Assembly (NCBI GenBank): GCA_030704615.1
Contig: CM060731.1
Coordinates: 74,400,001 to 74,464,000, forward strand
Source: Takakia lepidozioides
Taxonomy: Eukaryota > Plantae > Bryophyta
Length of the DNA: 64,000 nt
Direction of reading: 5' to 3'
Each line of letters opens with the position of its first letter. Position 1 is the stretch's first letter. Shown one piece after another: positions 2,081-35,779 of the stretch. The notes beneath the pieces are model-generated. The model was not told the DNA's origin. It saw only the letters and a list, made by a program, of their open reading frames with translations, and searched no databases. Position numbers and translations under genes: made by a program.

Positions 2081-2579
2081 TTAAACTTGTATATATATAT
2101 ATAAAGGGGGAGCAGGGGCCCTTTTTAATCAAATTAAATGAAACAAAGGTTCACATTAAGGTGGAAGAAATAACCACCAGGGAGGCCGTAGAGGCTCATT
2201 GAGGGGGAACTTCCCCATGACCAAGCATACTAGCTAAGAGCAAATGAAGCGGAGGAGCTGGAAAAAGATGAGTGAAGCTAGTGCATGAGGAGAGATAAAG
2301 CAAGTGAGCCTAAAGAGCAAGGCTGATAAGCAGCGATAACACTGAGAACAGTTGCCTGGTGGCAAAAGTAGTACCCAAGTCTGGAGCAAGGAGAAGTTTG
2401 AGAAAAGATTCTTGAGCTACGTGCTAAAAACGCAGCTGAGTCCCAGACTTGGCAACTCGAGGCTTCTTGTGCCTCCAGTTGAAGTCCACATCGTCCCCAT
2501 CACTAGGGGATATCCCATGAATTGGGAGTGGAGACTTTCCAGTAGTACTGCATGTTGGGAAGACAGGTTCCGAGAATGT

Positions 2580-5329
2580 CGTTTTTACCCCAGGACTGTT
2601 GAAAGTTATTGATGAGCTGCCTGCCACGTTGTTCTGAAGATCTGGAAACAGCTGCACACAACATATCCCAAGCCTTCCTTCCCTCAGTAAGCAGGTCTTG
2701 ATAAATGCAAAAAAACACAGACCTGCCCCTGGGGGCTCTCCCTTAAAAAACAAGAGCACATCTAACCTTCCAGAGGTTCCATAAGGTTAAAGCTCTTAGA
2801 CTTGCCCATTCAGGGCAAACAGATGGCACGTGAGCAGGCAAGAAATTCAAGAGCAGAAGAGAGGAGGGGGCTGGGGATGGAAAAGACTCCCAACATGAGT
2901 AAAAGTGTAACACAGCTCTCCAAACTCTAGCAGGGAAGGGGCAGTCTACCAGGCAGTGCTCGATGGACTCAGGGTGTGACATACACAAACCGCAAGTAGC
3001 ATTGTTGAATAAGGTCTTGGCATTGACAGGCAAGATTCTATGAGCCAGCTTCCACAAAAAGCCTAAGATTTTGGCATCCCTTTGTTTTTCCATATTGTTA
3101 TGGGTCTCAACAACGAGTGACCTAACTTCACCGAATAAGCAAAGAAATGGGAGTGGTGCTCATCCTTCCAGCTCCATTCCTCGGGGTCGAACTGTAAAGC
3201 AGCCAATGGGTAGCGTAGAAACCAAGTGAAACTGGAGTGCAAGGCCCATTGCAATTCCCCCCCCTACGGTGGGGCTGGGTTGGCATTTCCTTTGTCATCA
3301 AGCACCCTTATGGGGTACAGAGATGCTTGTGCAAATCCGCATAGCCTGTCAGCTGCAGGTTGCCCTCACAGTCTGAAATGAACTGAATTCCAGAGGCTAT
3401 CTGATCATTCATAGAAAGGACCAGCATGACAGTACCACCTCCATTGGTTGTTGAAGTAAGGCTAGATCAATTTACTCCATGGTATGTGACGGTGTGTAAT
3501 GGCCCTAGGGATCCACTTGGCTAAAAGAGCCTTGATCTGTGCTGCTGGATCCAAAATTGCAAACCCCCCCTTCTTTTTGGGCTGGCAGAGTTGCTCCCAA
3601 GAAAGCAGAGCCCGTCTTACCGGAGTTTGCACTGTTGCGCCCCAGATAAAATTCCGAATAAGAGCTTTTATCTCTTTCACCATGGAGGTACCTGGGTCCC
3701 ACACTGCTGCAGAGAACCAACAAGAGGCCAGTAGAACCTGGTTTGCCACTAGTGCCCGTCCAGCAATTGAGAGCATGGAGGAGCTCCAGTGGGCAAGAGA
3801 TCTTTTCAATCTGGAAAGTACGTTATGCATTCTGCTCTGTTGGGACACATTAATTCCAACCTAATGGCCCAGCAGCGTGTGGGATTCCCCTTCCTGAACC
3901 CATCGGAGGCCAATGTCTTCCCCCCAAGCAGCACAGTGAGCAGAGGAAGCTTGACTCTGCAACACCGAGAGAAGTCCCACCGACTTTCCCCAATTGATTT
4001 TCAAGCCAGAGCCAAGACAGAAAATGTGCAGGGCTTCAAGTGCATGATCAATGTTGTCACGGGATGAATTGTCCAGCATTAAGGAGGTATCATCAGCATA
4101 CATTGACAGCTTCACCATTTCCGGTAGGAAGGTAGGTAAATGAAGGCCCACAATGTCCTACCTGGCTTCAAACAAGTGCCCAAGAGAATCTGCCGCAATG
4201 AGAAAGAGGAAAGGTGCCAATGGGCACCCTTGTCTCACTGACCTAGAGATAGGGAAGGATTGGGAGATGACACCATTCACCATTACCTTACTAGAGGCAG
4301 ACTGAAGAAGGATCCTTACCCAAGACAAGAACTGACCACTTAAACCTGTTTTTTCCAAAGCAGCGAGGAGGAAGGTCCAGTCAATAGAGTCAAAAGCTTT
4401 TTCAAAATCCAACATCAAGAAAGCAAGAGGCTGATTGTTCAGATTTGCCCGGTGAAGCGCTTCATGGGCCAGCATGATGTTATCCAAGATCATACGGTCT
4501 TTAAGAAAACCGGTCTGCTCTTTTCTGATGATCTGAGGCAGCAAGGGCTGGATTCTCAAAGCAAGCGCCTTGGCTATAATCTTGTATGTAGAGTTGAGTA
4601 GGGTGATAGGTCGGTAGTTGGTTACGTTGTCCCTCTCCCCCTTTTTGTAGATGAGAGTGATAAGGCCTTCGGAGATCTGAGAGGGCATCACCTGCTTCTG
4701 GAGGATGTCGTTGGTCATACCCAGAAAGTCATCTCCAAGAGTTCCCCACAAAGATTGAAAAGCTCAATGGGCAGACCATCTGAAGAAGCCGGCTGCAATG
4801 GTGGCCATCTTCTTCAGGACAACACTTGGAATGCCAACATCATCACGCAAAGAGGGGATCAAAGTAGAAGCACGACGCTGAGCAGCTTTAGCAAAGAAAT
4901 ATTTAGACATTTTTTCCCCCTTCATCGACCAATTTACCCCTGCCTTGACCCTAATGAACTGCTCCCTGGAATGTAACAACAAAGAGAGATTCTTCTTGGT
5001 TGTTTTGTAGGAGATCATGGTTTGAGGGTTATCTCTACCTTCTTGAAGCTGGTACTGACAGACATGAAGGCATTTTGTGAGTGCCCTCTCTTTTCTGGAG
5101 GTGTCTTCGGCCTTTTTCCTAGACAATTTCTGACAGATGCCTTTCAACTTTTGCAGCTTGGATAGAAAGAGGAGAGTGGGAGAGGTGAAAGGTAGGTCAG
5201 CAGAGGACCAAACTCTTTGCAGCTCTAGAACAACCTCTGGGTCTTTGAGGAGGGAGGGGTTGAGCTTAAAGAAACCTCTACCCTTTGCTCTTGTCCCCGG
5301 GGTGTGTAAAGAGAGATTGACAATGGAGT
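2580..5329 (-). pseudogene. LINE ORF2, C-terminal part: end of endonuclease, reverse transcriptase, zf-RVT (frameshifted)
   Basis: NYRPITLLNSTYKIIAK, LDFEKAFD, RQGCPLAPFLF, MYADD, CGLC..ESIEHCLVDC and LWNLWKVRC spread across ORFs 2743-5357. Confidence 0.92.
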
Positions 5330-5852
5330 TGTCGTGCGCATACATATCGCTACACAACTACATCGCTGTCCAAACCACACCATACATATATGCACAATAA
5401 AGTAGTCTGCCACAATGATAGAAATCCATCGAACACACTGTGACACAAAACATGAAAACCAAACCATCACTCTTAGAAAATAGTAGTCGAGCCAGGGGCA
5501 CCCCAAGCTATGGGGACTCCACCCCACAACAACCTGTACCCCTACATACGCACACTCAAATCTAAACACATGCAGGAGCTCGGTCGCGCAGGCTCAACTC
5601 GAGAAAGATGAGCCGCGCGACTGCCGCTCTCGTGAAGATAAGACGGACCAGGTGTCAAACTAAACTTGACACCTGATTTAACACTTGACCTAAATCCAAG
5701 TGTTAAATACAAATAACTAGTTTTATTCTAGCTGTTTTCACACTGTGCTTATTTAACTTGACAGCTGTCGTGCGCATACATATCGCTACACAACTACATC
5801 GCTGTCCAAACCACACCATACATATATGCACAATAAAGTAGTCTGCCACAAT
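5330..5852 (-). repeat. 3' split-repeat block of copy 1: B1 (5766-5852), gc, A2 (5417-5763), B2 (5330-5416)
   Basis: The two 87-bp B copies read identical; the 347-bp A2 reads identical to 16947-17293. Confidence 0.95.
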
Positions 5853-5864
5853 CGCCCCCCTAGC
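5853..5864 (-). promoter_or_regulatory. Polypurine tract-like GCTAGGGGGGCG abutting B1
   Basis: The same sequence sits at the same position in copy 2 (42284-42295). Confidence 0.75.
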
Positions 5865-6109
5865 TGGTGGATAGGTCCCTCTACCTCCAGATAGCTACAA
5901 GATGTAATAGCCACAGCCGTACTAAGTCCTCTATCACTGTCCCTATTGTACTCAAACTCTATAGACCAAGAGGCCGGGTACAAGAGTAGCCCCATCGTTA
6001 GTCGCCATCTTGCAATCTGTGAACTTGAGCCAGGACCTCGTGTGTTCAAGGTCTCCTAGTAGCTGGGCCTTGGTTGCTTGTTAGTCTCCCATGGTTGTAT
6101 CCACTCCCA

Positions 6110-9100
6110 CTATCCAATGCATTGTGGACATAACCAATCCCCATCTGGAACCATCTCAAGAGGTGGAGTCAAGCACCCCATATGCCAACCTCTAGAGCAT
6201 CGATCACACACCAGCATGGTGGCTGCCCCTTTAGCAGACCCACACAACATGCACCTCAAACCTGCAGATACCACTGCCAGGTTTGGGTCAATCCTGCCAT
6301 CGACATTCGGAAGGTGACATGGCGCACAATTACGCACATGGTCCTTCCAAGTGATGCCATCCCGACCCTCCAAGACCAAGACGCCTGAGGGCAAGACCTC
6401 TCGAACCCTCAAAATAACACGTCCTGCAGTCACATCCAGGGTCGTAGGAGCAGTCTGCTGCAGATAGACATAGTCACCAGGGTTGAATCTCCGAACCCCA
6501 GGACGATAGCCCCCACCACGTATGGTAGCATACCTCAACGTATCACGGTGTTGTGCAATGGCAAGGTTCTCGAAAGCCATAGGCATGACTCTCTTGAACA
6601 ACTCTGCACGCTGCTCACATGCACGTGCCCACACGTCCGGATCGTCAAGGTTAAGAACTGTAGCAGCTTCTCTGCGAATGGATGTAGGCAAATCCGGCTC
6701 TCGGCCAAAGAGAAGAAAGTATGGTGAGAAAGAGGCAAGTGATGCTTGCTTGCTGAACCTGTAGCCCATGGCTAACCAGGGTAACTGAAGGTCCCAATCT
6801 CCTAGGTGTCCCTTCTGCAAGCCATACTTGCGCAAACCCCTCTTCACTGTCTGAACAACTCTCTCTGCCAAGCCATCAGCTTCAGGATGATCCCGAGAAG
6901 TGGTGCGGTGGTCTATCAAGGCCTTGTCACACAAAGCCTGAAACTCCCCCAAGAACTCTCTCCCTTGGTCCGTGAGTACCTCAGCTGGAGCACCGAATCG
7001 GCTAAGCACACAATCCAGGAATGCATACGCAGCTCCCTCACTAGCCTTATCAGGCAATGGAACCAATTCAATCCACTTGGAGAAGTGCTCCACCATCACC
7101 AACACGTACTTGTTGTGGCGCATGGTCAGTGGCAACGGCCCTGCGAAGTCAAGACTCCACCTGTAGCCCAATCCCATGATCGGAAGAGGGTGCAATTGTG
7201 GAGTAGGGGCGTTGAATGAAGCACGCACCCTGTCACACACCATGCACCTAGCCACAAATTGTTGCACCTCTGTGTGCATACCACGCCACCAATACTGCCC
7301 CTGCAGTAGACTATGAGTGCGTCGCACCCCAAAATGCCCCAACTCCTCATGGGCATGCCGCACTAACCGTGCCCGCTGTGTTGGGTGAGGCACAATCCTC
7401 ACTCGACCATCCTCCCACACTCGGAGCAGGTGTGTCCCCTCCCACCTGAACCTCTTGGCTCGTTGTAGGATCCGATCCCTCTCCTTGGCAGTCATAGTGG
7501 CTGCCGTGTCTCCACTGCGGAGGTAGTCCAACACAACTGAATCCTCATGTATATCTTTGGCGCCACCCTGCTCATTGCTGGCCTCAGGGTCCTCAGACAC
7601 TTGATCTACAGTCATCCCTGTTGTAGGTCCAACCTGGCCTTCCGCTGCCAAGATACACAGAAATGCAGATGCATGCCATCCGGGCACCATCTCCTCGTCC
7701 GTCTCACCATGCCACCGAGCTCCAGTGTCATCCTGCTGGCTCGTGCATGGATTGCGACTCAACCCATCTGCATTTCGATTGACCAAACCCGGTCGATGCA
7801 CCACCTGAAAGTCATACTCTTGAAGGATGAGTGCCCACCGTGCAAGCTTCCCCGTAAGCTTGTCTGACTCCATCAACCACTTGAGTGGTTGGTGATCCGT
7901 GACAAGGGTGAAGAGATTGCCGTATAGATAGCACCTGAAGTGTGCCACGGCCCACACTGCAGCTAAGCATTCTCCCTCATATGAGCTATACTTAGACTCT
8001 GCAGCATTGTTCGAGCGACTAGCATAAGCCACTACGAACTCTCTTCCCTCATCATCCACCTGTGTGAGCACCGCTCCAAGCCCCAGCATGCTCCAATCTG
8101 TATGCAGCTGAAAAGGACGCCCCCTGATAGGTCGTCTCAAGATGGCGCCGAGGTCAACCTCGCCTTGAGCTCTTGAAAAGCTTGTTCTTGCTCATCTTCC
8201 CACTGCCACTCCTGGTCCACCTTGGTCAGCTTGGTTAGAGCCTTTGCAATGGCACTAAATCCCTTAACAAACCGTCTGTAATAGTTTGCTAACCCCATGA
8301 AAGCTCGAACTCGGCTCACATCCGTGGGCGTGGAACCTGTGCAATGGACTCTACCTTAGTCTGCTGTACCCCCAATCCTCCAGGATATATCATGTGACCC
8401 AGATACTCAATCTGGTTGTGGAAAAACTTGCACTTGCCCGGATGTAACTTCAATCCGTGCGTCCTCAAGCGCTCAAATACCCCCTGAAGGTGTCTCTCAT
8501 GCTCCTCCACCGCAGCACTAAAGATGATGATGTCATCTATGTAGCACCGAGCAAACTCCACCCCTGCTAGAATCCTGTCCATGACTCTTTGAAACTCAGC
8601 GGGAGCGTTTTTAAGCCCAAATGGTAAGAACGCCACTGGTATAGGCAATCCTTCCCGTGCTCATTGATCCCCCAGAATGCCGTCTTTTGCTTATCCGCCT
8701 CCTTGATCGGCAACTGGTGATATCCGGATCGTAAATCCAACGTGCTAAAGACCTTGGAATGCCCAATGGCATCAAAGATCTCCTCTGGTGTTGGCATGGC
8801 ATACCTATCGGACTTGGTCTGACGATTTACAGGCCGGTAATCACCGCACATACGTCTCTCCGTCCAATTGCCATAGACATCCTTCTTAGCTGGCATCACT
8901 GTGGCTGAAGCATACTCTCCACCAGAGAGCTCCACCAAACCTGCCTCCCAGAGATCTTGAGTCCTCATCTGAATCAAAGACCTCTCCATGTCACTGTATC
9001 TATAGGGTCTCCGAAAGATTGGCGTGTCAGTGGCCAACTCAATACGGATCTCTTGACCCTTCAGTGCTCCCAAGTCCTTCAAACTGAAGGCAAAGCAATT

Positions 9101-9241
9101 CCTGTAAGCCCTCAGGAACCGCCGTATACGTCGTCTCTCTCCTCCGGTGACAATGGGTCCAATGTCAGGCTCCCAATTGTCCTCCGTAACTGCAACCTTA
9201 AGTCCAGTGGGCTTAGAGGTAGAGGACGCGTCCCGTGGTTG
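6110..9241 (-). CDS. pol: Pol: RT-RNase H-integrase (HHCC, DDE)-PHD finger; three apparent single-base frameshifts
   Basis: RMCGDYRPVN, LDLRSGYHQ, YIDD, LHTDWS..YSSYEGECLA, TDHQPL, H..GH..CxxC, LDFAGP..TDQGREF..GLAER, and C-terminal CMLC..CDRC..WHMGC..WLCPQC. Confidence 0.95.
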
Positions 9242-10520
9242 CTATGCTGCAACCTCTTGAGCAGTACCCCCTTCCTGCTCAGTCAATGACAAGGCCTCAT
9301 CCTGCCCCATCATCTCATCATTGAGAACCTCCTCATCCCGAGAAGAATCCCCAACCTCATCCATCACAGCTGCCTTCGCTGCCAACTCCCTCTGAACCTC
9401 GAGCACCTCCCACATGTGCCATGGATGTCTACACCTCGTGGTCCTCACCGGCTCGCCCCCACTCGCTGCCTGTACCGTCTCGGTAGGCAGAGAGACCATC
9501 AAGGGAAGTGCACTCCGCACTCTACGTTGCTCAGCCATAGCCAAGCTGACAATCCAGGTCAAGCAATTGAGATCCATTGCTTGCCCCAACACCTGACGAC
9601 GTGATGCCTCAGAAAGAGAAGGCACCGCCGTGGTCCCAGTGGAAAACCCCATAGCCCGCTCTCGCTCGTCGGCATTAGGCTCCACTAACTGCTGCAACTG
9701 AGCATCCCACAGGAGGCCAGGTCCACCATCCCGAAAAGCATGGGATCCTGGGAAGCTGAGCAGTGTAGGTAATGCTGCTCGTGGTTGACCCACCCTGTTG
9801 ACCACTGCCAAAGGCGAACGGTCATCGTGTCTCACACGTTGAGACTGCCTTCCTGTGTCCAAAATGCCATCCACGGTGAGGTGTGCTGGCCGCTGCACCC
9901 CATCAAATGCACGCTTGAGCAGTGCGGGTGGCATCAAGTTAGTCCACCATAGTCGTGGACGATGAGCCCGTGACCCCACTGCAGCTGCATCCAGCAACAC
10001 TGCTGACCCAAGCCACGACCGGACTTGATGCACACTGGCCATCACCCTGGCCCGAGAATCACCCATCAGTGGTACATTCTCCAAGATGTATGCTGGAGAT
10101 ACAGCTTGATGAAGCTGCAAGCAACGCAAAATCCGCACCATCTCCCAAAACAGACCCGTCCTCGAGTCTCGCAATCCATTGCCATGCCCGGCTGATGAAT
10201 GCCCTTGGCAGGGCCAACCTGCCACTATCAGATCAATGGAGCCAACCTGCTCCAAATCTTGCGCCCCCAACAAGGAAATGTCTGCTGGCAAGGCTTGTTG
10301 GTATCCACGAACTGCAGACACAGGCAACAAGTCAGGGTACTGCTGTACCAACTGAGCCACATGGCGCAGTGAGACGCGTCGTGCAGTCTCATCCCTCTCC
10401 ACATACAGGTAACGCCTTACCCGCACACCTGCCTGTAGCACAGCAGCCAATCCGGTGCTGATCCCGCCAAACAAGTCCAGAAGGCAAATGCCTTCATCCG
10501 GCCGCTGCCACACAAGAGGT
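9242..10520 (-). CDS. DNMT3-like C5 cytosine DNA methyltransferase domain within the retroelement polyprotein
   Basis: Motif I LDLFGGISTG, II YLYVE, IV DLIVAGWPCQ, VI YILENV, VIII AHRPRLWWTN, IX ERERAMGF, X RRQVLGQAM; spacing and wording parallel DNMT3 catalytic domains. Confidence 0.93.
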
Positions 10521-13257
10521 GTGGTGTCCAATGGCGACAACTGAGGTGGCCCTGGTGCAATCACCGAACTCTCCTCCTCTCCTGACGGTACAAAAGCTTC
10601 TTCCCAAGCTTGTTGCACCCGTCCATCAGCAGCTTGCTGCAAATCCTTGCTCGTACCCCACAACGGGTGTGAGCAACCATGGCAGGCAACTCCGCCGTAC
10701 CATGCATGTCATCCTGCTCTGCTGGAGGTGGCACATCCTCTGCATGGGCATTGCCTTCCAGCAACTCTCCAGGCCAACTAACGGCAGCTGTGAAGGCGGC
10801 TAGTGTTGGCATCTTGCCCCGCTGGGCAGCTGCAATACCCCCAATGAATGTCACAGGGAGCTGTGCACGGCGACCATCCCCTGACTGCCATCCAGGCCTG
10901 TAGGATGCTGACTCCTCCCAGAAATCCAGGGTGAAGCCCATGGGGTATAACACTGCCCCACCAACGAGGACATCGTAAGAGACCGCGTCTGTCACAATGG
11001 CCTTGGCTCGCATCACTGAGCCATCTACAGGATGATCCGGCTGCAGTCTAATAGCCAACTGATGTCGTGTCATGCCGCGAGCCTGCTCTGATCCTCCCAG
11101 AGATGTCTGTATCTGGAAAGGACAAGGCTCCATATCCGCCTCCATGAGGCCCAAACCTGCAATAGCAGCTCTGCCCAACATCAGTGGCTGAGCTCCTGAG
11201 TCCAACAAGACCCGCAGTGGCCGGTACTTCTTGCCTGCCGGTCCACTCAAAGTGAAAATGCCTCCCTGGTTGTCTAACAAGACAACTCCAGGTGTCACCA
11301 TGGCGCGCTCAATGGCTGGCCTAGCTGGCAGCTCCGTCAACCTGGCAGCTGCAGCTTGCCAGGGCGCTGCCGTGGCAGTCTTGACCCTCAAATCCGAGGA
11401 TCCCTCTGCCACTACACCTTCCACTAACTCCGCAGAAGATGAAGTGACCTCCCCACTCTCACAGAGTGTTGCTGCTAGTCTGAACACTGCAGCTGGTCTC
11501 ACCCCCGGCGTCGCAATCATTGTTGCCGAGAACAGTGGGGCCTGACACACAGAGGTGGCTGCCCCCAATAACACACCGGCCGCACTAGCCTTGGCAGCAG
11601 GAGTCAATGCTGCACGTGTAGCTCTCCCCAATGGCATAGTAACCTCCGCCTCGGTAACAGTCGGGCGAGAACTAGGTGCCATGGATGGCGTTGACACAGT
11701 CTCCGCCAATGTGAATGACTGAGGAAGCCTTGCCTGACGGCTTGCCTCCCCACGCTGTGGATCCAATTCCACCTCTGCACCTCGTGGCTCAGGAACTCGT
11801 GCTGCTCCTCGAGTCACGGCTGCAGCAGACTCCACCTGCTCTAGTGGTAGTGCTGCTCCGCACATAAATCCCATGCCTCCCATATCTCCTCCCTCAGGAG
11901 CAGGAGGTGGACCATCCCGCCTGGGAGCCGGTACCGCCTGAGCTATAGCCATGGCAGCGAGCCTCTGCTCTAGCTGCTGAAGCCGGTTGGCCATGCCTTG
12001 ATCAACGCCTGACCTCCGCGTCCTTGGCCATGTTGAGCTTGCCCTTGGCCTGCACCTCGTGCCCGACCACCTCGTCCTCTCTGGGCTGGTCCACCTCGCC
12101 CCCGGCCACCATTGTTCCCTTGGAACTGGCCTGGGCGCAACTCAGGATGCAAGTCATAACACTGGGCATCTCCATGCCCATATTTGCCACAATGCCCACA
12201 CTGCAACTGTGCAGGCTGTGCTTGTGCCGGCCTTCTGCCACTCTCTGGGCAATCTCTCTTGACATGGGGTCCTCCACATGTCCAACATATCACCCCTGGT
12301 TGCTGTTGGCCTGCAAAAGATGCCACGGGCCTTTGCACCTGAGGCCCCTGTAAGCTCCATGGAACTTGGGCTGGGCAACCTTGCCCCCCTGACCACGCTG
12401 TTGGGCAGTCCCTTGTGCTTGTGGGCTGACAGCTGTGCCCCGTACAGGCATGTCCTTGCCAAATCCAATTGTAACAACTCGTTCCTCCACCATGTTGAGC
12501 TCAATCCGCTCAGCCAGCAGAAACACATCTGCTAATGTGGGTTGGGCTGCTTGTAACAGGGTTGCATCTCGCACCCTTCTCTTGAGCTCCTTGTCCAGAA
12601 TTCCATACCAAAACTGGATTGCCTGAGCTTCAGTAACCCCTTGGGTCACACTTATCAAGCGCCTCATACGAGTGTACGCCTCTCGCAGGCTCTCACTGGG
12701 TTTGCGCTGGAAGTCTTGCAAACTTCGCAGCTTCTCTGTCCGTACACCTTGGTAGTTCCTCCGCAACTCCTGGAAGAACTCCACCACCGGGTTGAATCTA
12801 GGCACATGTGTTGTAGCTGTGGCAGGAGGAGTAGTAGCACCTTTGAACTGGTACCACCTGCAGAAGTACCAGCACTACCTGCTCCACTACTAGTGCTGGC
12901 AGTGGGAGCTATTGGTACTGATGCAGCTACTGGTCGCGTCATGCCTCGAGTAATGGAGATGTAGTCAGGTGACCAATACATCCTCCACTCCTCAATCTCT
13001 GCTTCATGTCCTCGCCTGAACTCGTGGTAATCGTCCATAGGCGGGCCTTCCAAATGCTGGAACAGTCCCTTCCACGCCATGAATGGGGTGAATAGATGTG
13101 GATTGCGCATCTGCTGCAAATCACACCAGCTGTCGAACTCCTGGATAAAGTCATCCAACTCGATTGTGCCCACAGCTCCAGAGTACCTACGAGGCCCCTT
13201 GGTAGCTCCATACATCTCCTCCATGTCGTCCCACAACAATGGCGAATGAAAGTGCAC
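10521..13257 (-). CDS. gag: Gag (capsid-like region, two CCHC knuckles, RGG-rich tail) plus aspartic protease; apparent frameshifts
   Basis: QRKPSESLREAYTR, CWTCGGPHVKRDC, CGHCGKYGHGDAQC, protease VLLDSGA and YDVLVG. Confidence 0.88.
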
Positions 13258-15554
13258 ACCTGTTGATGAAGCCTCCGAGCCTGTGTCTGACTCTACAGTA
13301 ATTGAGGGGGCGGTGAAGGTGGTCTGAACCGAATACCTCGTCTTGTGAACCCACTCTCACTGTTACTGCCTGTAGCCGTACTCCCCTCAAAACCCTTGGG
13401 TAACTCCGTAATGACACTCACAATGTGCACCTCCTCCAGTGACACTATAAGGCTCTAGTACTAATCTAATAGTGACACGGGTGGGCACCTGTTGCAGTCT
13501 AAGGGTCATATCCCAATGGCTCAGGGCACCTGCACCTGCATCCACCGCAAGAACTCCTATGGTTGGCTGGTCATCAACCCAGCCTCACCATAGAAGAAAC
13601 ACTGGTGGTCTTGCTGGTCATCACTCCAGCCTCACCACCGACAGCATACTCTAGGATTGACCGGTGATCAAATCCGGCCTAATCCCTATGAAAGCAAGCG
13701 CCCACACAAAACCAACATGGCGCACAGTCAAGCATGCAGGTGTTGGGGGGGATCCAAACACAAGAAATCAAAACATCAACACCCCCACACCAAAATCCAG
13801 CAGCAACGTTGATCCTGCAGAATATCCCAGCCCAAACCCCGGACTGACTGGCCTCCACCAAGAGAGGCTTTGGCAACTACAAGTACAAGGTAATGAAAAT
13901 AGTACAGAGATGGAGGGGAAGAATAGAAGCCCGCCCAAGCAAGATCTAACCCTGATCTATGCTATCAACTTCCAGACTTCTCTCAAAGTACCTCGCTCTG
14001 CTTGATGGTAAGGTGTAGGAGGTATATCTATGTCCAGAAACCTGCCACTAACCTTGTCCCAAGCTACAGTAGCTCGCTCTAACCAACCCTCCTCCTCTTT
14101 CTGCCAGGTAGAGACAAAGCAACACTCTGCTATCTCCCGCTCACTGAACACTAAAGAAAACAAAGGTAGGGTCTGATAGTCTCTCAACTCGAAAGCTTTG
14201 AGACGGTTGCGGGTGTCTTCATTGCGAATGACTGCATCGCCTTCAAACAGAACAAACTTGTCCTCGCTAATGAACCCCGCTCGTGGTTGCCTTGTGCAGA
14301 GCGTGTCCGACTGCAACACTGTCTAATTGCACAAACTTGTGCAGCTCCTGCTCCTCTGCTCCAGTACACCACGGCCTTGTGGCTGAACACCTTGGTCCCC
14401 GGTGCTGTCTTTGGCTGTGTTCCAAGCCTAGCTTTCACCCACTTTGGTATTTCACCTACAGCTGCAGAACTGCTGGCTCCAACAGAGTTCTGACTGTCCA
14501 AGGCGATATTGAGGCCCTCAATGCCAACTACAGCAGTCTGTTGTCTACTGCTAATGCCTGACTCCCAGTATGCAATCAACTCGTCCAACTGTTCTCCACT
14601 CAAATCAGTCTGAGTTCCTTGGGAAACATAAATCCTGTCCCCTTGTGTGCACAGGCTAAGAGAAGAGACCTGCCCTTCAATTACGTCCTCATTTCCCCCA
14701 GCCATGCAAGGAGTACATCCACAGGTTTGTCTCTCATATAGGCCAGCACAGGTTCTAGAAACAGGATTGTGGATATTTCGTGGCACACTCACACTCTAAA
14801 AATTCCATAGATTTTTAGCAGAGTCCCAAAAACAGAAACCAGGTCTAGATAGGTAGATTTCCCCTTTCTACAGCTATCCCCTCAAAAACTGTGTCAAACA
14901 GAGTTCATTTGACAAAGATATGACCAATTTGGCTTTACATCATTTAAATTAGATCAAAATGCCCTGTTTTTTTTTTTTTTGAAGGTTTTCAAATTTAAAA
15001 ATTTAAAGTTACCCAAACTATCTGGTAACTGGTTCCCAGTTCCCTACGTTCTTTCCTAGGTTCCCTGGCCACGTGCCCTATAATTCGCACCTTGCTCCAG
15101 TCTTCTGCATACCGAGAGTGAGAGAGAGAGAGAGAGAGGGAATTGTGGCACTCAGTAGTGTCTTGTTGTGAAAGAGAGTGGATTCCGTGATTGCTTGCAG
15201 GCTTGCGCACCAAGAGAGGGGGAGGAAAGACATGTTTATGGACATGTTTATGGACGCCATGTACAGGCGAGGGGTCACTCACAGTCTGCTCGAGGCCTTG
15301 GTGGCTAACGATAAATCACTGAGGAGGATTACCAGCGGGAAGCACTGGACTTTGTGCTGGAGCTTGCGGGTCCCCGGCCCATTCCAGTTACGGGGGAGAA
15401 AGCCCTGGCTCCTGAATCGCCCGTCTATCCCCAGCGTAGCTCGGCTCCGCCGTTCCCAAACCCGTCGTCTCCATCCTGCAGCTGAAACTCTAGCACTTTT
15501 GTGAATGTGAACTGCTTACTGCAGGGAAGTGGGTGTATGGGAGCATTCGAGTCC

Positions 15555-16195
15555 ATAGATGCAACACCGCTTGATCAGGTCATCAACGATGCAATTGACT
15601 GGAGTTTCCGTAAGCAGAATCCAGAGGACTATTGGGCGGGCCAGGTCGAATCAAGCTGTACAATGGAAGCGGAGTGGATTCTGGCTATGCATTTCCTGGG
15701 CGTTACAGATGACCCAAAGAAAGAAAAAGTCGTGCGTTGCATTCGGAGCCTGCAAAGAACTGACGGATCCTGGGACACTTATCATGAAGCTCCTGCAGGT
15801 GACCTTAGCACCACCGTCAAGTGTTATGTGGCCTTAAAAGCGTCAGGATCCCAACCCAATGAAGCATCCATGGTAGCAGCTCGAAAATGGATTTCTGAAC
15901 ATGGTGGACTTCAATCTTTACGACTTTAGCTGCTGGGCAAGGGAAACAGTCGTCCCCCTGACCATCCTTTCTGCTCGGCGCCCAGTACGTCCGCTGCCGC
16001 TCGACTTTTGTTGTCATGAGCTCCATGAACCAGAGGACATGAAACAACATCAAAGCAAGAAAACTACTCTTTCAAATCTCGCCAGACATGTCTGTGAAAG
16101 TTTATTCCTCTACTTCGGCAAGTTCCTCATATGGTATGGTAAGAGCCGTTCCAAGCCTGGCCGTGAGGTGGCCATCGTATGCTGCTTGGCCTGAA
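15555..16195 (+). pseudogene. shc: Squalene-hopene cyclase N-terminal fragment with internal deletion, captured in the retroelement leader
   Basis: QNPEDYWAGQVESSCTMEAEWILAMHFLG, QRTDGSW, GDLSTTVKCYVALK, ARKWISEHGGL then FNLYDFSCWARETVVPLTILSARRP match the SHC N-terminal consensus. Confidence 0.85.
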
Positions 16196-16932
16196 TCCTT
16201 TGGTGACAAGATTCTGACGGCACTTGTTGTGGTGTACAACCTCCTTGGGTGTACTCGTTGATGACGTTGAGCTATATATCGCCTGCTTACTGTAGGGAAT
16301 CAGGCCAGAATACGTTCGTCGTTCGTTTCTGCTGAATTGGTCAGAAGACAATTCCAAGCCCGGAACCTAGGGCGCATACAATGCAGCAACCCCAAGAACG
16401 GAAAGCGCAAAGTTCTGCTGTTGGCGAGGCTCCATAGCAACCATATACACGGAACTCCATCCTCTGCGCATTGCGAAGAGGATGCCGCTTTTCTGCTCCA
16501 TAGCCCTGCCCCTTAACCCGCTGCATGGCGCTCTTGCATGATCAAAGCAAATGATTGACAAAGAAGCTGAAGCTAAATTTTGGTCCAAGACCAACCCCGA
16601 TACAAAAATCAATTGCAACAGCAGGCTCCTCTATAGGCTTACTGGTGAAACGATCATCCAGCTTCAAGGATCATGCATAGGTGCCAACTAGCATTTGCTG
16701 CTGCATTTTTAAGTATCTCCTTGTGTACCCCAAAGCCTCTAGTGACTTGGTAGCTTCAGCGACTGCAATAACAATGGCGGCTCTGGCATCGTCATCCTCC
16801 AGGCGTTTCAGGGCACGCTGAATCTTGTGGTCACATTCAATGATATGCTTCTCAAACTAATCACTACTTATACGCAGGTAATCTTGCAAGTGCTAACCCT
16901 CAACTCCTACCTTGCACTCACAGGTAAGAGAG

Positions 16933-16946
16933 CATCTTTCTCGAGT
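16933..16946 (-). promoter_or_regulatory. Putative self-priming primer-binding site ACTCGAGAAAGATG
   Basis: Abuts A1 and is complementary to 17127-17140 inside A1; no TGG-type tRNA PBS is present. Confidence 0.75.
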
Positions 16947-17293
16947 GATAGAAATCCATCGAACACACTGTGACACAAAACATGAAAACCAAACCATCAC
17001 TCTTAGAAAATAGTAGTCGAGCCAGGGGCACCCCAAGCTATGGGGACTCCACCCCACAACAACCTGTACCCCTACATACGCACACTCAAATCTAAACACA
17101 TGCAGGAGCTCGGTCGCGCAGGCTCAACTCGAGAAAGATGAGCCGCGCGACTGCCGCTCTCGTGAAGATAAGACGGACCAGGTGTCAAACTAAACTTGAC
17201 ACCTGATTTAACACTTGACCTAAATCCAAGTGTTAAATACAAATAACTAGTTTTATTCTAGCTGTTTTCACACTGTGCTTATTTAACTTGACA
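16947..17293 (-). repeat. 5' repeat A1 of copy 1
   Basis: Begins TGTCAAG on the minus strand; reads identical to 5417-5763. Confidence 0.95.
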
Positions 17294-17297
17294 GAGT

Positions 17298-17690
17298 GGT
17301 CAAAACCAGGAGGCACTGGGGCCAAAGGGGATCTGACAGTCCAATTTAACAGGTGCTCAGAGTAATAGATTCTATCTAGACGAGCCAGGGAGAGATTTGG
17401 AGACTCCCTGTTATTAGACCATGTAAATTTCAGCTCTCCCTCAGCTGGGGTGGCGGCGTCCAGCAAACCCACCGCCATGCATAGAGAGTCCCAAGAGTCT
17501 CTTTCAGCAACAGACAAGCCATGAACATTAGAACCGAAGCGATCATTATCAAACTCCACCATGTTAAAATCCCCACCCACAATCCAATGTTGGATGTCAC
17601 CAAGCTGCAGCATTTTCAATCTTATAAGAGACCACAGCTCTATACGTTCTTTTCTCAATGTACAATGACGAGCGGAGCTGGTGGGATAGG
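17298..17690 (-). pseudogene. LINE ORF2 APE endonuclease fragment
   Basis: WIVGGDFN, FTWSNNR, ARLDRIYYS, FDH. Confidence 0.88.
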
Positions 17691-17849
17691 GGGCAAATAG
17701 GGACTCAAGCCCTAGAATCGGGGCATGAAGGCATGCACGATGGTGGGACAACCGCGATCGCGGGGTTTGATACTCATGGGAGATGGAACAACATTCTGAA
17801 TTTCAGTAGGAGGTCATGAAAATGCTTGAGTGTTATGGAATGGGTGGCT

Positions 17850-20354: not shown

Positions 20355-21569
20355 GTATCCGAACCTGAGACCCCACATGCATGACCATGTATGTCTGACC
20401 ATGCATGAAGATGGGCATCCACTGAACTTCTCAGGACTTCGAAATTTTTTGAAGTGGCAGCGCAACAACCTCAGTTGCAGAGCTGTTGAGATTCGATCCT
20501 GAAACCTTCGCTTTCAGGTAAACGTACCACTGGGCTGCACGCTGCTACATTAGTAATCAATCGAATTTAATGTTAGTTATACAGAAAAAGGGACTCTAGA
20601 CTGCCTGGGGCCTACCAAGACATGGGCGTCCGTTGCGCATACGCTTGCCGGGAGCATTCAACTCGGGTCACGTACGCTTACCGGCCCGGGCGCATTCAAC
20701 TCCCCCGGGCCTTTTCTATTACTTGGCGTATTATATTGACAATTATTGACAATATGGAAAGACTCCGTTCCCCCTCAATGGGAAATCCCCGGCTGCAGGC
20801 GTCCTCGGCGCCACAGACGTGCAAGAGATTATAAGTTAAACGCGCAGCTTAAGTTTTAGTGTTCCTGCATTTCGTAGATGGCCACTGCTGGACATTGTTC
20901 TGACACTGCTCCTTCCAGTTTTCTGCCTCTCAACACATCTCCTCCTCCTGTTCCCTCCCCCCTGGTAGTGCAGCATAAGATACTTACTTCACTACTACTC
21001 TGGCACTTTGGCAGCACATTGGCCGCCTGCTTACTCTGCAGCTCTGCTTTCTTTGCAAAAACAATCACTTTTGTTCATCGGTTCTGGGTCACGAGGTGGT
21101 ATCCCCGCTCTAAGCCTTCATGGCCCCTGAGTTGGTTATTTTTTCTACTTTTCTTAATATATTTTCCAGGGCGCCTGTCCCCCTGTTTTATTTATTTTTA
21201 AATATATCTATATACTGTCAGTCAATAATCTCTAACATAATGCTGCTGATGAGCAACCCCACGTGAATGGATTCTAGAGACAGCCTGCTTATCAACCCAC
21301 ACTGCAGATTCGTGCTCCAAGGTATGCCTAACAATGCGGCAAATGGTTTTGTTTACTTCAGAGTTGATCCCTCTGCTTCATAGTGTGCACAGGCAGCTGG
21401 AAAGCTTTTTGGATAAAAAAAAGCAGGAAACAAGAAAGTCGGGGGCCCTCTACAAGCAGCTGAAAAACCACTGTTCGGAATCAGGAGATTCCCAAAGGTT
21501 GAGAGAGATATGCAGCCAGGTATAACTGATCCTCATGATGAAACAAAGACCACTGTAAGGGATTGGCTG
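20355..21569. repeat. Right arm of long inverted repeat
   Basis: Reverse complement of 1-1240. Confidence 0.93.
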
Positions 21570-29400: not shown

Positions 29401-30502
29401 GTCATCGAGTTATGGGCGCAGCTGATACTTCCAAACTCCCACCCAGCAATTCTTCATGAGCAGTTTCACAACAAGCTCAGAAGATCACAATGACACTTGC
29501 TCCACTTCACCTTCAGACAAGTACCACTGTCGACAGGGAGGGGTAACAACCATAGAAAAAAGCAGGCGAGGAATGAATAAAAATCACTTACTTGCCACAC
29601 TGTTGGCAATAGCGATGGGGCACGTCGGGCAGCAGAACTGTGCTCGCATTCGCACAAACTAGGCACACGCGGTGGCGCTTGTGGTAGTCCTTAAGCCGTG
29701 CAAGGTCAGTCCCACAGGTTGGCACCTGGCAACGGGCACTCACCTTGGGCCGCTTGCTGCGAGTGCGTCCTTCATCTTCATCCTCAGTATCAGTGCACGC
29801 ACATGGCACCCTGCCCGCCAAAAAGTTGGGGCAATCCAGCCGTGGATCCCTTACAGTCTCCTGCTGAAACACTGTGTAGCTTGATTGCGGCTGCACCTGA
29901 CCCTGACTAGTAATCTGAGGGCTGGCTTCTAGGTCACCCGAATCAGCCACCGATTGCCCCACTGACCGACTCGCTCCCTCATCATCCTCCTTATCAGTGC
30001 ACGCACCTGGCACCCGGCGTGCCAGAAGATTGGAGCCCTCCAGCCTTGGACTGAGTACCGTCTCCTGTACCGTGGAGCTCGATTGCATCTGCACCTTCAG
30101 CCCATCTACAGCACTTTGAGGGCTGACTTCTAGGTCACCCAAACCAGCCCACGGTTTCCCAACCGAGCGACTGCCTCCTTCATCTTCATCTTCATCCTCA
30201 TTATCTGTGCACGCGCATGGCACCCTGCCCGCCAGAAAATTGGGGCAATCCAGCCCTGGATCCCTTACTGTCTCCTTCTGAAAGACTGTGGAGCTTGATT
30301 GTGGCTGCACCTCACCCTCTACAGCACTTTGAAGGCTAGCTTCTAGGTCGCTCAAATCACCCCAGGCCTGCTCCACCAATAAACTGGGGTCCAACAAGGA
30401 GGCTGTTGCTCTGGAAGAACCAGTGCTGGAATTCACGGGGTCCCCCAACAACAGCACACTATCCCACTCCCACTCCAAGCTTGTATCTCCCGAGTGTCCC
30501 AT
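23442..30502 (-). CDS. SPL7: SQUAMOSA promoter-binding-like protein, SPL7 clade (multi-exon; some exons show frameshift or stop, so intactness is uncertain)
   Basis: SBP domain [21 protein letters not shown]|[23 protein letters not shown] with a C4 first finger (exons 30502-29592 and 28476-28325); [23 protein letters not shown]; [27 protein letters not shown] (26926-26819); [10 protein letters not shown]; [14 protein letters not shown]; C-terminal TM segment [16 protein letters not shown]; GT-AG junctions. Confidence 0.88.
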
Positions 30503-31164
30503 GGCACTCGAAACAACTTTCAAGCAGCCCCGTCCCCAGCTTTCACCCCTGCAACATCAGCAAAGCTTTGGAATACAGAAAAGACCATGTCTGCAGGCCA
30601 CGGATACTTCGGTGCAGGACACTTGTGGGCTTGGCGGGTAGGGAATGCAAAAAGGCTCATAAGTACATTGAAAGATTTCAAAGCCAGAGACAACATTCCC
30701 TAGCCCGGGACATGGACATGCATGTCCGGGGCTTTTGCTCTTGAAAAATATCCGCAGTTCTTGCACTCGCCCACTGGAAGAGAGAGAGAGAAAGACTTTT
30801 GCCAAAGCCGCCGTAACTAAGAGCCACTTCACCTTGCGGCTAGTGCCCCCTTTCAAGGCTGGGGCCTATTGGCCCAATGAAATATACTAAGCCCCTTTTA
30901 AGGGTGGGCCCTATTGGCCCAATGAAACATGTGGGGCTTGCTTGTGGGCTTTGATCTTGGGTGAGCGGGAATATTTGAGGAATCTTTCTAGCCTTGGATG
31001 GATTCTTTAGATATCCTAGGTCGGGGCCTATCTGATTTTAGCGACCAAAGGTCAGAAGCTAGTTTAGCGTAGAGCAGGAATAGAGTGCCATAGTGTCACA
31101 TCATCGTCGCCATGTCACCATAGACACATCATCGTCGTCGTCAATTTCTTTGGAACCTACCCAA

Positions 31165-31475
31165 AATGCCTGAAAAGCAGCACGGGGAAGGGATGCCTCC
31201 GCGTGCTCGAGCGCGGAGGGGTTTCACGCAATGTGGTGCTCACCAAGTGTTCAACAGAATGCCTCAACGATCTTTGATCACGTGGAATATAATGTTGACA
31301 GGATTTGCCAAGCATGGGTGTGGTAGGAATGCTTTGGAGACCTATGAGCAAATTCTGCGCAAAAGGGTGAAGCCCAAGCACATCACATTTGCAATGCGTG
31401 TGCAAGCCTGGGATCTTTGGAAAATGGGAAAGAGGTCCATGGTGACATCGTCAAAGCTGGAATTGTACCATATGT
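31165..31475 (+). pseudogene. PLS-class PPR fragment
   Basis: AHQVFNRMPQRSLITWNIMLTGFAKHGCGRNALETYEQI..VKPKHITF. Confidence 0.8.
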
Positions 31476-31477
31476 CA

Positions 31478-32490
31478 CGATGGTGGGACAACCGCAATCG
31501 CAAGGTGTGGCTTTTTCTTAATGTACGATGTGAACAAGTTTGTCCATCCTGCACATGTGGGCTCATGGCTCCTATTATTATCATGATTTGATATTCTTCC
31601 TGATTATGTTTACAAGGTTCTTGGGAGAGTCAGCTCAGTCTTAGCAGATCGTGTTTCAATCTATGCCTGCTCAGCTGCACCGTGGTGGTTCTCACAGACC
31701 AATCCGACATCACCTGACTACAGACACAAGCAGCACACACAATGGGTCTTTTTGGGTTGATGGTCAAATCCTCCATGGGTCACGCCACAAGGTCAAGGAC
31801 AATGTGGTGAGGGCACCTTCTTCTTCGACCTATTTCAGCCTGTTTTGCCCTCTCATCAGACTCGGCCCTGAGATGCATATTGAATTCTGTAAGTTAGGTG
31901 GTTGGGTAGATGGTCAACTGGAAATAGCAGCCGCAGCCGCACAAATGATAGAACAAGGCACTGCTAATGAAGACACCTTCTTCAACACATTTCACCCTGT
32001 TTTTCCCTCTTGTTAGAATCGCCCCTAAATTTCCATGTTGAATTCTGCAAGTTAGCTGGTTGAGTGAATCTGGTTTGGAGTGACTTTGACATGATACTGC
32101 CAATGTGATAACAGGAAAGTATCCAAAAACAGGTAACAGAGATGAGGAGAAGGTGTGGAATGAATACTTTGCTGACCCCACTCAATGGTGGGACAACCGA
32201 GGCAAAAGGTTGAATCCCTGTTAGATGACAGAGAGTAGCAGACGCAATTCAGCATAGGAACTAGTGTGCTTGGGTGTTTCCTAGGTTGTCATTGTCAGCT
32301 GCTAGCAGCAAGGGCAAAGATGAATGCATGATTTTGTGCAGAGGCATGGATAGCTGAAGGAGAAGGGATAGAGTGTGGGTCCAGATTCATCCAAGAGGGC
32401 CAGATTTCAAGCACTAAGATTACGTATGATTCCCTGTGGATCAATAGCTACAAGAAACCTACATGCGTAGGTGGTCAACTAAAGGCAGCA
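31478..32490 (+). pseudogene. Two intron-split OSB-type PDF (ssDNA-binding) motifs
   Basis: WWDNRNRK|GT..AG|TNPTSPDYRHK (31481-31504, then 31698 onward) and DEEKVWNEYFADPTQWWDNRGK|GT..AG|IHPRGPDFKH.ITYDSLWINSYKKP (32141-32208, 32385-32480). Confidence 0.72.
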
Positions 32491-34971
32491 GCTGCCAAAC
32501 ATAATGAACGTGATGTGGTTGGGCTTCACCCCTCCGCGCATCATTTGCTCACCACATCATGGTGCCCTCACCACATTGTCCTTGACAATTCAGTATGCAT
32601 CTTAGGGCCGAGTCTGATGAGTGGGCAAAACAAGCTGAAATAGGTTGAAGAAGAAGGTGCCAGACATACGTATTTGAATTTGCTGAAATGCTCTGAATCT
32701 GCTGAAATGCCTCCTTGGTTTAAAGTCTGTAGAGCCTCTTTCAGTCTGCCTACCTCACAAAGCATCTTCACATGCCCAGAAATGCCAGAAGAGGCATTGT
32801 GAACTCCCTCTCTTGATCCTCTTCCAGAAGCTAGGTCATGGTTGAGGTGCCAGATTTTATCAACTGTGCCGATGCGTGTGCAAGCCTGGGAGCCCTGGAA
32901 AAGGGGAAAGAGGTCCATGATGACATCGTCAAAGCTGGAATTGTACCAGATGTCATTGTGAACACTACCCTGGTGGACATGTATGCCAAATGTGGGTGCA
33001 TTAAGGATGCGAAGGGAGTTTTCAACACTGTGGCTGAACGAGATGTGGTGTCTGCATGGAACACGATGCTTGCAGGGTATCCACATCAGGGACGTGGTAT
33101 GGAGGCTTTGGAGACCTATGATCAAATGATGGGGGAAGGGGTGAAGCCCAACCACATCACGTTTCTGTGCATTTGCAATGCGTGTGCAAGCCTGACAGCT
33201 CTGGAAAAGGGCAAAGAGGTCCATGGCGACATGGTCAGAGCTGCAGTTGTACCAAATGTCATTCTGAACAATACCCTCGTGGATATGTATGAAGGGAGTG
33301 TTTGACAGTATGGTTGGACGAGATGTGGTGTCGTGGAGTGCGATGATTGCAGGATATGCACAGCAAGGGCGCGGGATGGAGGCTTTGGAGACCTATGAGC
33401 AAATGATGTGCGAAGGGGGTGAAGCCCAACCACATGACATTTGTTTACATTTGCAATGTGTGTGCAAGCCTGGCAGTCCTAGAAAAGTGCAAAGAGGTCC
33501 ATGGTGACATTATCAAATCTGGAATTGTACCCGATGTCATTCTGAACACTGCCCTGGTGGACATGTATATCAAATGCGGGTGCATCGAGGATGCAAATGG
33601 AGTGTTTGACAATACGGCTGAACGAGATGTGGTGTCGTGGATCGCAATGCTTGCAGGGGTATGCACAACAGGGGTGTGGGATGGAGGCTTTGGAGACCTA
33701 TGAGCAAATGATGTGCGAAGGGATGAAAACCAACCACATCACGTTTGTTTGTGTTTGCAATGCATGTGCAAGCCTGGGAGCTCTGGAAAAGGGGAAAGAG
33801 GTCCATGGTGACATCGTCAAAGCTGGAATTGTACCAGATGTCATCCTGAACACTGCCCTGGTGGATGTGTATGCCAAATGTGGGTGCATTAAGGATACGA
33901 AGGGAGTTAATTTTGTCAAGTTATTTTATCACTAGTGTGAAACTAGGTAGGAAATAGCTAGCTTTTACATATTGACATTTGGGATTGGCCCAAGTGTCAA
34001 TTCAGGGGTCAAGGAAGATTTAGGCCCTGGAGTGGTTATCTTCACGGCAAGCGCGGGAGGCTCATCTTTCTCGAGTTGAGCCTCGCCGCGCCTAGCTATG
34101 GCGCTGTAGTGTGGATTCCCCATGGCGTGGGGTGCACTTGGCTTGACTTGTATTTGAGTGATGAGGTTATATATACATGAGTTTATGCTTCAGCTTTGTG
34201 AGCTCGCATGAGCTTGTGCTTGTATTCTTCTTCTTTATCACTCGAGAAAGGTGAGCTCGTATCTGTGAGTGCCAGATACGAGTTAGTTGTAGCACTTGTG
34301 GTTTTTGCTTGAGAATGAGAGAAACTAGGTTGTTATGCAATGAGCACCGTGGAGCTCTTGGTTGTTAGAAGTGGAGGCGATGTGGGTTACGAGGTGGTAG
34401 ACCTTGGCATTCGATCTTCAGCTTCAGAGATTAAAGCACCATGCTGCAGGTAATTCCAGAGCACCTTGATGGTTTCAGATTGTGTACATGCATGAGCAAG
34501 CACGATTGAAAAGAGGACCAGTCAAGAGCAGGTTATAGTGGCTTTGGTGGCAAAGCTGAGAATTGGACTTGGGAATGCGAGCTTTCATTGTGTGAAGGAT
34601 TGCAAGACCAAGCAAAAGGGCTGATTTGGCTTGGGGCAAATCAGTGCACTTTGTGGAGTATGTTAAGATTGGGTTTCAATCTCGAGCTTCAGCATTGAGA
34701 GGGCTCTTGTCATGGCAAGAGTAGGGCTGGAACAGGAGCTGAGAGGTGCGACAAGGCCATGGAATGTGCACCTAGGGTTTCAGAGCTTGGAAGAAGAGCT
34801 CTTGCACCACAAGAGGAGTGTCTTGTGGCTGGAAATGTAAGCCTTAGGGTTTCAGGAGCTTGGCAAAGGCTGTGGAGTGCTTAGTCTTGTCTTAGAGAGC
34901 ATCAAGGAGCCAAGGAGCCAAGGAGCCAAGCTGATACCTCTTGTGTGAAGAGGTTGCATGTGTGGAGCATG

Positions 34972-35334
34972 TGTCAAGTTAAATAAACACAGTGTAAAAC
35001 TAACTAGAATAAAACTAGTTATTTGAATTTAACACTTGGATTTAGTTCAAGTGTTAAGTCAGGTGTCAAGTTTGAGCTTGACACCTGAACCATCTTATCT
35101 TCACGAGAGCGTCAGTCGCGCAGCTCATCTCTCTCGAGTTGAGCCTGCGCGACCGAGCTCCTTCATCGTTTAGAAGCTGAGTGTGCTTATGATGGGAGGA
35201 TAGGTTGTTGTGGGGTGGGGTCCCCATAGCTTGGGGTGCCCCTGGCTCGACTTTTATTTTAAAGAGTGATGGTGTTGGTTTTGTGTTTCTCTTGTTATTT
35301 GAGTTTAGTTCTTTCTTATCACTCGAGAGAGATG
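34972..35334 (+). mobile_element. Nested 5' repeat A plus PBS of a third element (copy-1 subfamily)
   Basis: Starts TGTCAAGTTAAATAA, aligns to the reverse complement of 16947-17293, and is followed by ACTCGAGAGAGATG. Confidence 0.85.
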
Positions 35335-35659: not shown

Positions 35660-35775
35660 TGGGGCTGTGACGGGCTGTGACGGGCTATGATGGGCTGTGA
35701 CAGGCTATGCCCTTGTGACCTGTGTAGGGCTGTGACAGGCTGTGGCCTTTGGGGCTGTGACCCCTGTGACCTTTG
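35660..35775 (+). repeat. GGGCTGTGAC-type minisatellite
   Basis: Tandem imperfect 10-mers immediately before the truncated gag. Confidence 0.8.
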
Positions 35776-35779
35776 TAGA

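Follow-up and report, generated by a model that had tools for sequence, protein, structure and literature searches.

The window, that is, the whole stretch of 64,000 nucleotides analysed here from the bryophyte Takakia lepidozioides, holds two copies of a retrotransposon that encodes a DNMT3-like C5 cytosine methyltransferase (DNMT). Copy 1 lies at 5330–17293 (−), has TGTC…GACA termini, and is flanked by the 4-bp target duplication GAGT at 5326–5329 and 17294–17297. Its domains are ordered Gag-PR-DNMT, followed by RT-RH-integrase-PHD. The gag region (12129–13224, −) gave a Retrotrans_gag match below the cut-off, shows two CCHC-like knuckles by eye, and is broken by frameshifts. The aspartic protease (10800–11330, −) carries VLLDSGA at 11211, and homologues match Asp_protease_2 here. 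The DNMT domain itself (9506–10525, −; PF00145) has intact motifs I–X, and the stop codon of the Gag-PR-DNMT frame, TAG CAA CCA at 9236–9244 (−), matches the UAG-CAR-YYA readthrough motif and shares its frame with RT. The RT, RNase H, H2C2 and rve integrase, and PHD finger fill 6110–9241 (−; Pfam RVT_1, RT_RNaseH, Integrase_H2C2, rve), with three 1-bp breaks at about 8631, 8328, and 8143. The Pfam matches and the protease motif showed that copy 1 has the Ty3/gypsy domain order with a DDE (rve) integrase, an assignment based on domain order, integrase, and termini.

Both window copies carry breaks. At the PR/DNMT break of copy 1 (10666), the extra base was found in all of the depth in three of four sequencing runs and in about 73% of it in the fourth, and the 1-bp deletions of copy 1 may be either real or long-read errors. 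The runs compared with the window appear to come from other individuals; a 2173-nt contig of run X5 differs from copy 1 by 3 letters and 3 gaps. The initial annotation had proposed one consensus Gag-PR-DNMT ORF, arguing that each copy is in frame at the junctions where the other shifts. The single ORF was confirmed independently by 24 of 187 homologues, which have GAG-PR-DNMT as one protein; at the PR/DNMT junction, however, both copies proved to be broken, at different places.

Upstream of gag, an open frame of 203 codons that matches nothing in Pfam (14184–14795, −) lies in the part of the leader that is deeply covered across the family. Further upstream, 15100–16850 is a low-copy host segment inside the copy-1 leader, and the N-terminal part of a squalene-hopene cyclase (SHC) gene is found antisense in this leader at 15486–15929 (+; PF13249, E 5e-37). 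The depth of the SHC segment was low in runs where the remaining element was deep, so that it was probably captured by a single copy or by very few. According to the available text of Li et al. 2018 (PMC6786969), this gene occurs in ferns, mosses, and liverworts, and not in seed plants or green algae.

The ends of copy 1 are split repeats. The 5' repeat A1 (16946–17293, −) is identical to A2 at 348/348 positions, and the 3' block (5330–5852, −) consists of B1 (5766–5852), the dinucleotide GC, A2 (5416–5763), and B2 (5330–5415), with the two B repeats identical over 86 bases. The polypurine tract (PPT; 5853–5866, −) stands directly before B1, not before A, so that the layout is A…PPT-B-A-B instead of plain direct LTRs with the PPT beside the 3' LTR; the repeat of about 349 bp that could be read as a plain LTR is part A only. 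The B-A junction of copy 1 forms the palindrome ACGACA-GC-TGTCA, and the conserved junction holds CG and CHG sites. Through self-comparison of 16 metagenome loci, we found one (L018) with the same full layout and the duplication AAGG, and split ends with a 4-bp target duplication were therefore present in all three complete elements (copies 1 and 2 and L018). Two further loci, L012 and L016, retain the PPT and the junction, with their ends cut short. Contigs of runs X2 and X4, from one sample, join 5325 directly to 17294 with 4 shared letters. This joint and the identical A and B repeats indicate that the copy-1 insertion is recent and that an empty site exists.

The RNA of the retrotransposon Tf1 primes itself from its own 5' end. 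In copy 1, a predicted primer-binding site (PBS; 16933–16945, −) directly after A1 is complementary over 13 nt to A positions 154–166, which would place a Tf1-like self-primer at A position 154. The bases right after the A repeat were complementary to A positions 153–167 in four of four cases, over 13, 10, 13, and 16 nt. The complementarity covaries: the inner A repeat of copy 2 carries a compensating change, and L018 uses another sequence. The primer/PBS pairing appears in the minimum-free-energy fold (z −3.8). We consider Tf1-like self-priming, with a transcript start predicted near A position 154, very likely.

The second copy lies at 33914–42991 (+), with A…B-A-B ends and the target duplication ATTT, and is 88.6% identical to copy 1 over 6.5 kb. 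Its own repeats have diverged (A, 302/327 identical; B, 179/191 identical), and it is the older insertion. The homologous decayed DNMT that had been noted in this copy was located at 37776–38656, where motif VIII reads HCQR and deletions of 4 bp and 19 bp occur; the TAG CAA CCA stop follows at about 38969. A second A repeat of the copy-1 type, with its own complementary PBS, was observed in the leader (34972–35330), and the outer repeats are only about 70% like those of copy 1; copy 2 is a nested or chimeric element.

Several other features surround the two copies. Copy 2 sits in a decayed PPR array (31200–33913 and 42992–43525) with a period of about 101 codons, and PPR repeats of this period, which we take to be of the PLS class, also occur at about 55500–57450. 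An SBP-domain gene fragment at 29588–30556 (−) contains a stretch of about 205 nt repeated three times. Two long inverted repeats (1–1203 and 20376–21569; 884 nt 100% complementary) bracket the region, and copy 1 interrupts a LINE-like element (2400–5300 and 17233–17802) with its RT at 4158–4763 and its endonuclease at 17233–17802.

The ORF at 9242–10708 (−) matched PF00145 with an E-value of 3e-13 in the profile check that the initial annotation had suggested. The full catalytic set claimed there was found in unpermuted order: motif I (LFGGI, 10474–10460), II (YVERD, 10405), IV (GWPCQG, 10219), VI (ILENVP, 10087), VIII (AHRPRLWWTN, 9967), IX (ERERAMGF, 9667), and X (RQVLGQAM, 9598). Among the aligned homologues, 128 of 131 retain the catalytic Cys and 151 of 159 the Glu of ENV. 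By sequence, the best solved matches were DNMT3A/3B (E 1e-10), ahead of DRM2 (7e-4) and HhaI (5e-4), and a bacterial restriction methylase was rejected on the far weaker HhaI-type matches. We built an AlphaFold2 model of the DNMT from a 47-row alignment (pLDDT 87, pTM 0.89), and the best fold match by Foldseek was DNA-bound DNMT3A (E 2e-19, TM 0.69/0.81).

Selection on the DNMT was evaluated by Nei-Gojobori dN/dS. The ratio was 0.36 [0.24–0.55] between copies 1 and 2 and 0.11 [0.06–0.16] between the near-intact relatives L012 and L016, so that the dN/dS check proposed earlier spoke against neutral evolution. The RT and integrase values lay below those of the DNMT in both comparisons, at 0.25 and 0.14 for the window copies and at 0.04 and 0.02 for L012 and L016. 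Four pairs of decayed metagenome copies gave DNMT ratios of 0.40, 0.53, 0.65, and 0.67, and the interval of one of them included 1 (0.67 [0.42–1.18]); pairs between the window and the metagenome had saturated dS, and their ratios were set aside. Judged from these substitution patterns, the DNMT is under purifying selection. The CpG observed/expected ratio of the element (0.50) is like that of the rest of the window (0.47), so that the sequence bears no mark of an unusual methylation regime, and neither CpG content nor the transition spectrum was diagnostic.

The DNMT frame is closed by TAG CAA CCA at the same place in copies 1 and 2. After the stop, copy 1 continues in frame into RT; in copy 2, a 1-bp break follows closely. 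The homologous stop was reached by 16 of 31 metagenome loci; four of these (L012, L013, L016, and L026) have a perfect CARYYA with differing letters (CAGTTA, CAATCA), and 12 have CAACCC, eight after TAG and four after TAA, matching 5 of 6 bases and missing the last base of CARYYA. The remaining 15 loci are broken earlier, run off the contig end, or are weak matches. In L012, the frame is open over 1369 codons ahead of the stop and over 1047 beyond it, and L016 is likewise open for 1047 codons beyond its stop. Within the 45-row clade that includes the window (SH-aLRT 99), the protein extends beyond the DNMT to RT, RH, or IN in only six rows, each an NCBI eukaryotic gene model; in one of the six (P0129), the linker that contains the stop is skipped. 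Outside this clade, DNMT and RT lie within one protein, suggesting that the stop is derived. The conserved in-frame TAG means that the DNMT is not part of one continuous Pol with RT.

UAG-CAR-YYA is the readthrough motif of tobamoviruses (Firth & Brierley 2012, PMC3542737, as far as its available text goes). The exact type I motif likewise follows the stop in both window copies and in the four perfect metagenome loci, and here it would separate Gag-PR-DNMT from RT-IN. Its position in frame with RT predicts readthrough and a capsid-level enzyme, and we consider readthrough in this context very likely. Our search found no literature on readthrough in this kind of element.

A profile search returned 491 clusters at E 1e-30 or better. 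Among 136 new representatives, 73 have at least 800 aa, and 71 of these 73 carry retroelement domains. Named relatives came from Marchantia polymorpha (21 clusters), Calypogeia fissa (5), Sphagnum (4), Riccia sorocarpa (1), and Closterium (1), and further from Klebsormidium nitens (GAQ92009), Scenedesmus sp., Hariotina reticulata, and a Chrzof1 model, which is presumably Chromochloris. Some of the Marchantia clusters represent a single locus found in several assemblies, one comprises 18 members, and most relatives are nameless. All eight DNMT motifs were intact in five of nine Marchantia models examined. Mp4g09160, MpVg00370, Mp5g06330, and Mp5g06860 are Gag-PR-DNMT ORFs of about 1,280 aa with intact motifs, annotated as hypothetical proteins. 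In a Marchantia cluster, Mp_Vg (V chromosome) names were borne by 4 of the 15 listed members (P0462, P0463, P0464, and P0467). Two homologues named as bacterial (P0020 and P0179) are likely mis-binned, and viral-contig scans with the DNMT and with the RT as queries gave no relatives.

Proteins with both DNMT and RT (102 in total) fall into two architectures. Type I, with the DNMT before RT, accounts for 16, and the named ones are from streptophytes; GAQ92009 has the order PR-DNMT-RT-RH-INT and 45% identity. Type II, with the DNMT between RNase H and integrase, accounts for 86, and the named ones are from chlorophytes. The type II elements (RT-RH-DNMT-INT-PHD) are very diverse, comprising P0345 (Scenedesmus KAF8056149), P0275 (Hariotina), and 84 more, and no description of this architecture was found in the literature searched.

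Phylogenetic analysis placed the window DNMT together with sequences from Calypogeia, Sphagnum, and Marchantia, in a group of 23 rows (SH-aLRT 100). Along with the PPR repeats, the SBP domain, and the SHC fragment, this grouping points to a seed-free land plant, probably a bryophyte, as the host. In 50-row trees (16 type I proteins, 4 DNA-derived rows, and 30 randomly drawn type II proteins, without a DNMT-free outgroup), RT and DNMT each split types I and II by one branch (SH 95 and 86), and the window and Klebsormidium rows fell on the same side. A quickly searched 114-row DNMT tree did not resolve type I as one group. Host DNMT3s were represented in the DNMT tree by one fish sequence (P0304, on a long branch), with no plant host DNMT3 or DRM. 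A single ancient capture of the DNMT is likely. The Klebsormidium-like order, the split repeats, and the grouping with retrotransposon DNMTs, including those of chlorophytes, suggest that the window DNMT is most likely an old inherited lineage and not a fresh capture from a land-plant host. The earlier proposal that such elements extend to an embryophyte thus stood as regards a multi-copy family with a selected DNMT between PR and RT, and fell as regards fresh host capture. We are confident that the element is of the KnitGypsy-Dnmt3 kind and, jointly, that its DNMT is selected.

In public runs X1, X6, and X7, the DNMT interval was covered in 30 of 30 bins, and one contig (depth 3.4) skips part of it; this coverage shows presence only, because contigs drop rare variants. 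In three runs from a single sample, the element body had about 1000 times the summed contig depth of the low-copy leader, which hints at a high copy number of the element, the depth ratio not being a count. Run X5, guessed to be RNA, had no cover at 9670–10272 and no bridging contig, which has no bearing on expression.

We propose the following replication cycle. The RNA would start near A position 154, and most ribosomes would stop after the DNMT, with a minority reading through UAG-CAR-YYA into RT-RH-IN-PHD; the methyltransferase would consequently be made at capsid level. The protease would free the DNMT inside the particle, where the RNA would prime itself from its 5' end and reverse transcription would give a linear BA…BA cDNA. 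With the PPT in front of B and the PBS behind A, the true LTR would be B+A. As the ends of this cDNA lack TGTC/GACA sites, it would be end-joined into a two-LTR circle, creating the A-B joint found at the 3' end of the element, and cleavage of the internal CA-GC-TG palindrome by the DDE integrase would yield A…B-A-B with a 4-bp duplication. Retroviral integrases and IS3-family transposases cleave circle junctions. We regard integration through the circle junction as probable; the A-B-A…B products that this model predicts were found in none of the three elements, and it gives no reason for a cut at just one of the two junctions. A new copy would arrive pre-methylated and could pass as host heterochromatin or limit itself.

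On balance, we slightly favour the reading that this is a land-plant element of the KnitGypsy-Dnmt3 kind whose DNMT is likely packed, likely freed by the protease, and likely methylates its own new cDNA. A capsid-level DNMT fits cDNA methylation inside the particle, the role proposed for SymbioDIRS-Dnmt3, and for activity on the element's own cDNA, judged by itself, we see the chances as about even; against it stands the KnitGypsy DNMT, the only relative assayed, which was inactive in yeast. Alternatively, the DNMT could act in the nucleus with the PHD-integrase complex and, once integration is complete, methylate the inserted copy or its target site instead of particle cDNA. A PHD finger on the integrase suggests chromatin targeting, and chlorophyte elements have the DNMT directly before the integrase and after RT (86 of 102), but the bryophyte DNMT is upstream of the readthrough stop and would be made at Gag level, presumably far above what one integration complex needs, so we judge a nuclear role unlikely. 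The conserved catalytic set for DNA C5 methylation and the fold match to DNA-bound DNMT3A likewise argue against retention for a non-canonical job, such as nucleic-acid binding in the particle, RNA methylation, or marking one of two identical B-A junctions to confine integrase cleavage to the other. This possibility draws on the co-occurrence of DNMT and split repeats in Klebsormidium and in the three complete elements, on the CG and CHG sites of the junction, and on the KnitGypsy DNMT, which failed to methylate yeast DNA, a result called inconclusive by its authors in the available text (PMC5890265); junction gating is purely hypothetical, and we hold such a job to be rather improbable.

A recent capture of the DNMT from the host genome, with the domain carried along neutrally as a passenger, is very improbable. 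The leader of copy 1 does hold another host fragment, and one decayed pair has a dN/dS near 1, but the SHC fragment, unlike the DNMT, is antisense and of low depth, the ratios are 0.11–0.36 in clean pairs, the DNMT is in frame with Gag-PR in liverworts, mosses, and algae alike, and the two architectures separate in the DNMT tree as they do in the RT tree. Returning to the favoured reading of a packed DNMT acting on its own cDNA, we tentatively suggest a wider scheme, for which we claim only limited confidence: the DNMT3/PHD-integrase lineage may predate the chlorophyte–streptophyte split, have moved the DNMT between two positions, and have acquired a leaky stop in bryophytes, and it may prime itself, cut the palindrome of a two-LTR circle with an integrase of retroviral type, methylate new copies, and perhaps choose the junction, with intact Marchantia copies as a concealed, mobile source of de novo methylation among land plants.

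The question of why retrotransposons carry their own silencing enzyme dates from 2018, and DNMT3-type cargo has been published from dinoflagellates and Klebsormidium. The intact-looking Marchantia ORFs would move this question into a plant with genetics and methylomes, and bryophyte DNMT3 counts and interpretations of knock-outs may be confounded by transposon-borne copies. The combination of a DDE integrase, split repeats, self-priming, and readthrough would make an unusual replication cycle, each step of which is testable. DNMT capture itself is already published; the bryophyte spread, including the Marchantia ORFs, the readthrough stop, the self-primed split-repeat cycle, and the chlorophyte architecture appear to be new. 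No description of the element in bryophytes was found in the literature searched, which included few subscription papers, and supplements of the 2018 paper and the preprint could list land-plant copies; the available text of PMC11982613, PMC10952607, PMC6317226, PMC9033089, PMC9940879, and PMC6673714 describes no bryophyte copies, and that of PMC12344493 and bioRxiv 10.64898/2026.05.21.726589 mentions such elements in "streptophytes" with no land plants named.

The closest known system is KnitGypsy-Dnmt3 of K. nitens, whose capture is attributed to the K. nitens lineage in the available text of de Mendoza et al. 2018 (PMC5890265), whereas the relatives found here span bryophytes, Closterium, and chlorophytes. 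The two share Gypsy domains, an unpermuted Dnmt3-related DNMT between PR and RT, and purifying selection, and the Fig. 4c legend of that paper, the text from which this likeness is taken, describes DIRS-like repeats with Gypsy domains, comparable to the A…B-A-B ends here. The window element differs in its embryophyte host and in the TAG-CARYYA that closes its Gag-PR-DNMT frame; in GAQ92009 and the ENA relatives P0267–P0269 and P0272, unlike in the window, the DNMT runs into RT in one protein. The accessible part of the 2018 paper makes no mention of a PHD, self-priming, or readthrough for KnitGypsy-Dnmt3. Sequence after the 5' repeat complementary to a site inside the repeat is shared with Tf1 and the Tcn1 chromoviruses, self-priming having been predicted for plant Tcn1 elements (Neumann 2019, PMC6317226, available text; for these elements see also Novikova 2010, PMC2864245, available text), whereas the window element carries a DNMT, ends in split repeats, and has a PHD in place of a chromodomain. 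No tyrosine recombinase was found among the 13 element ORFs scanned against Pfam, a set that excludes the short leader ORFs, and with a DDE (rve) integrase present in place of the recombinase of PAT/Ngaro, DIRS membership was rejected. PAT/Ngaro retrotransposons use a tyrosine recombinase and have split direct repeats in the layout A…B-A-B. The window element shares this layout, which implies a circular intermediate, and differs in its H2C2 and rve DDE integrase, TG…CA ends, and 4-bp target duplications. SymbioDIRS-Dnmt3, which methylates CG de novo in yeast (PMC5890265, available text), and the EpiLTRs, whose DNMTs are DNMT4-related and accompanied by DAM and chromodomains (bioRxiv 10.64898/2026.05.21.726589, available text), resemble the present element in carrying a retroelement-borne cytosine methyltransferase, and belong to different element classes.
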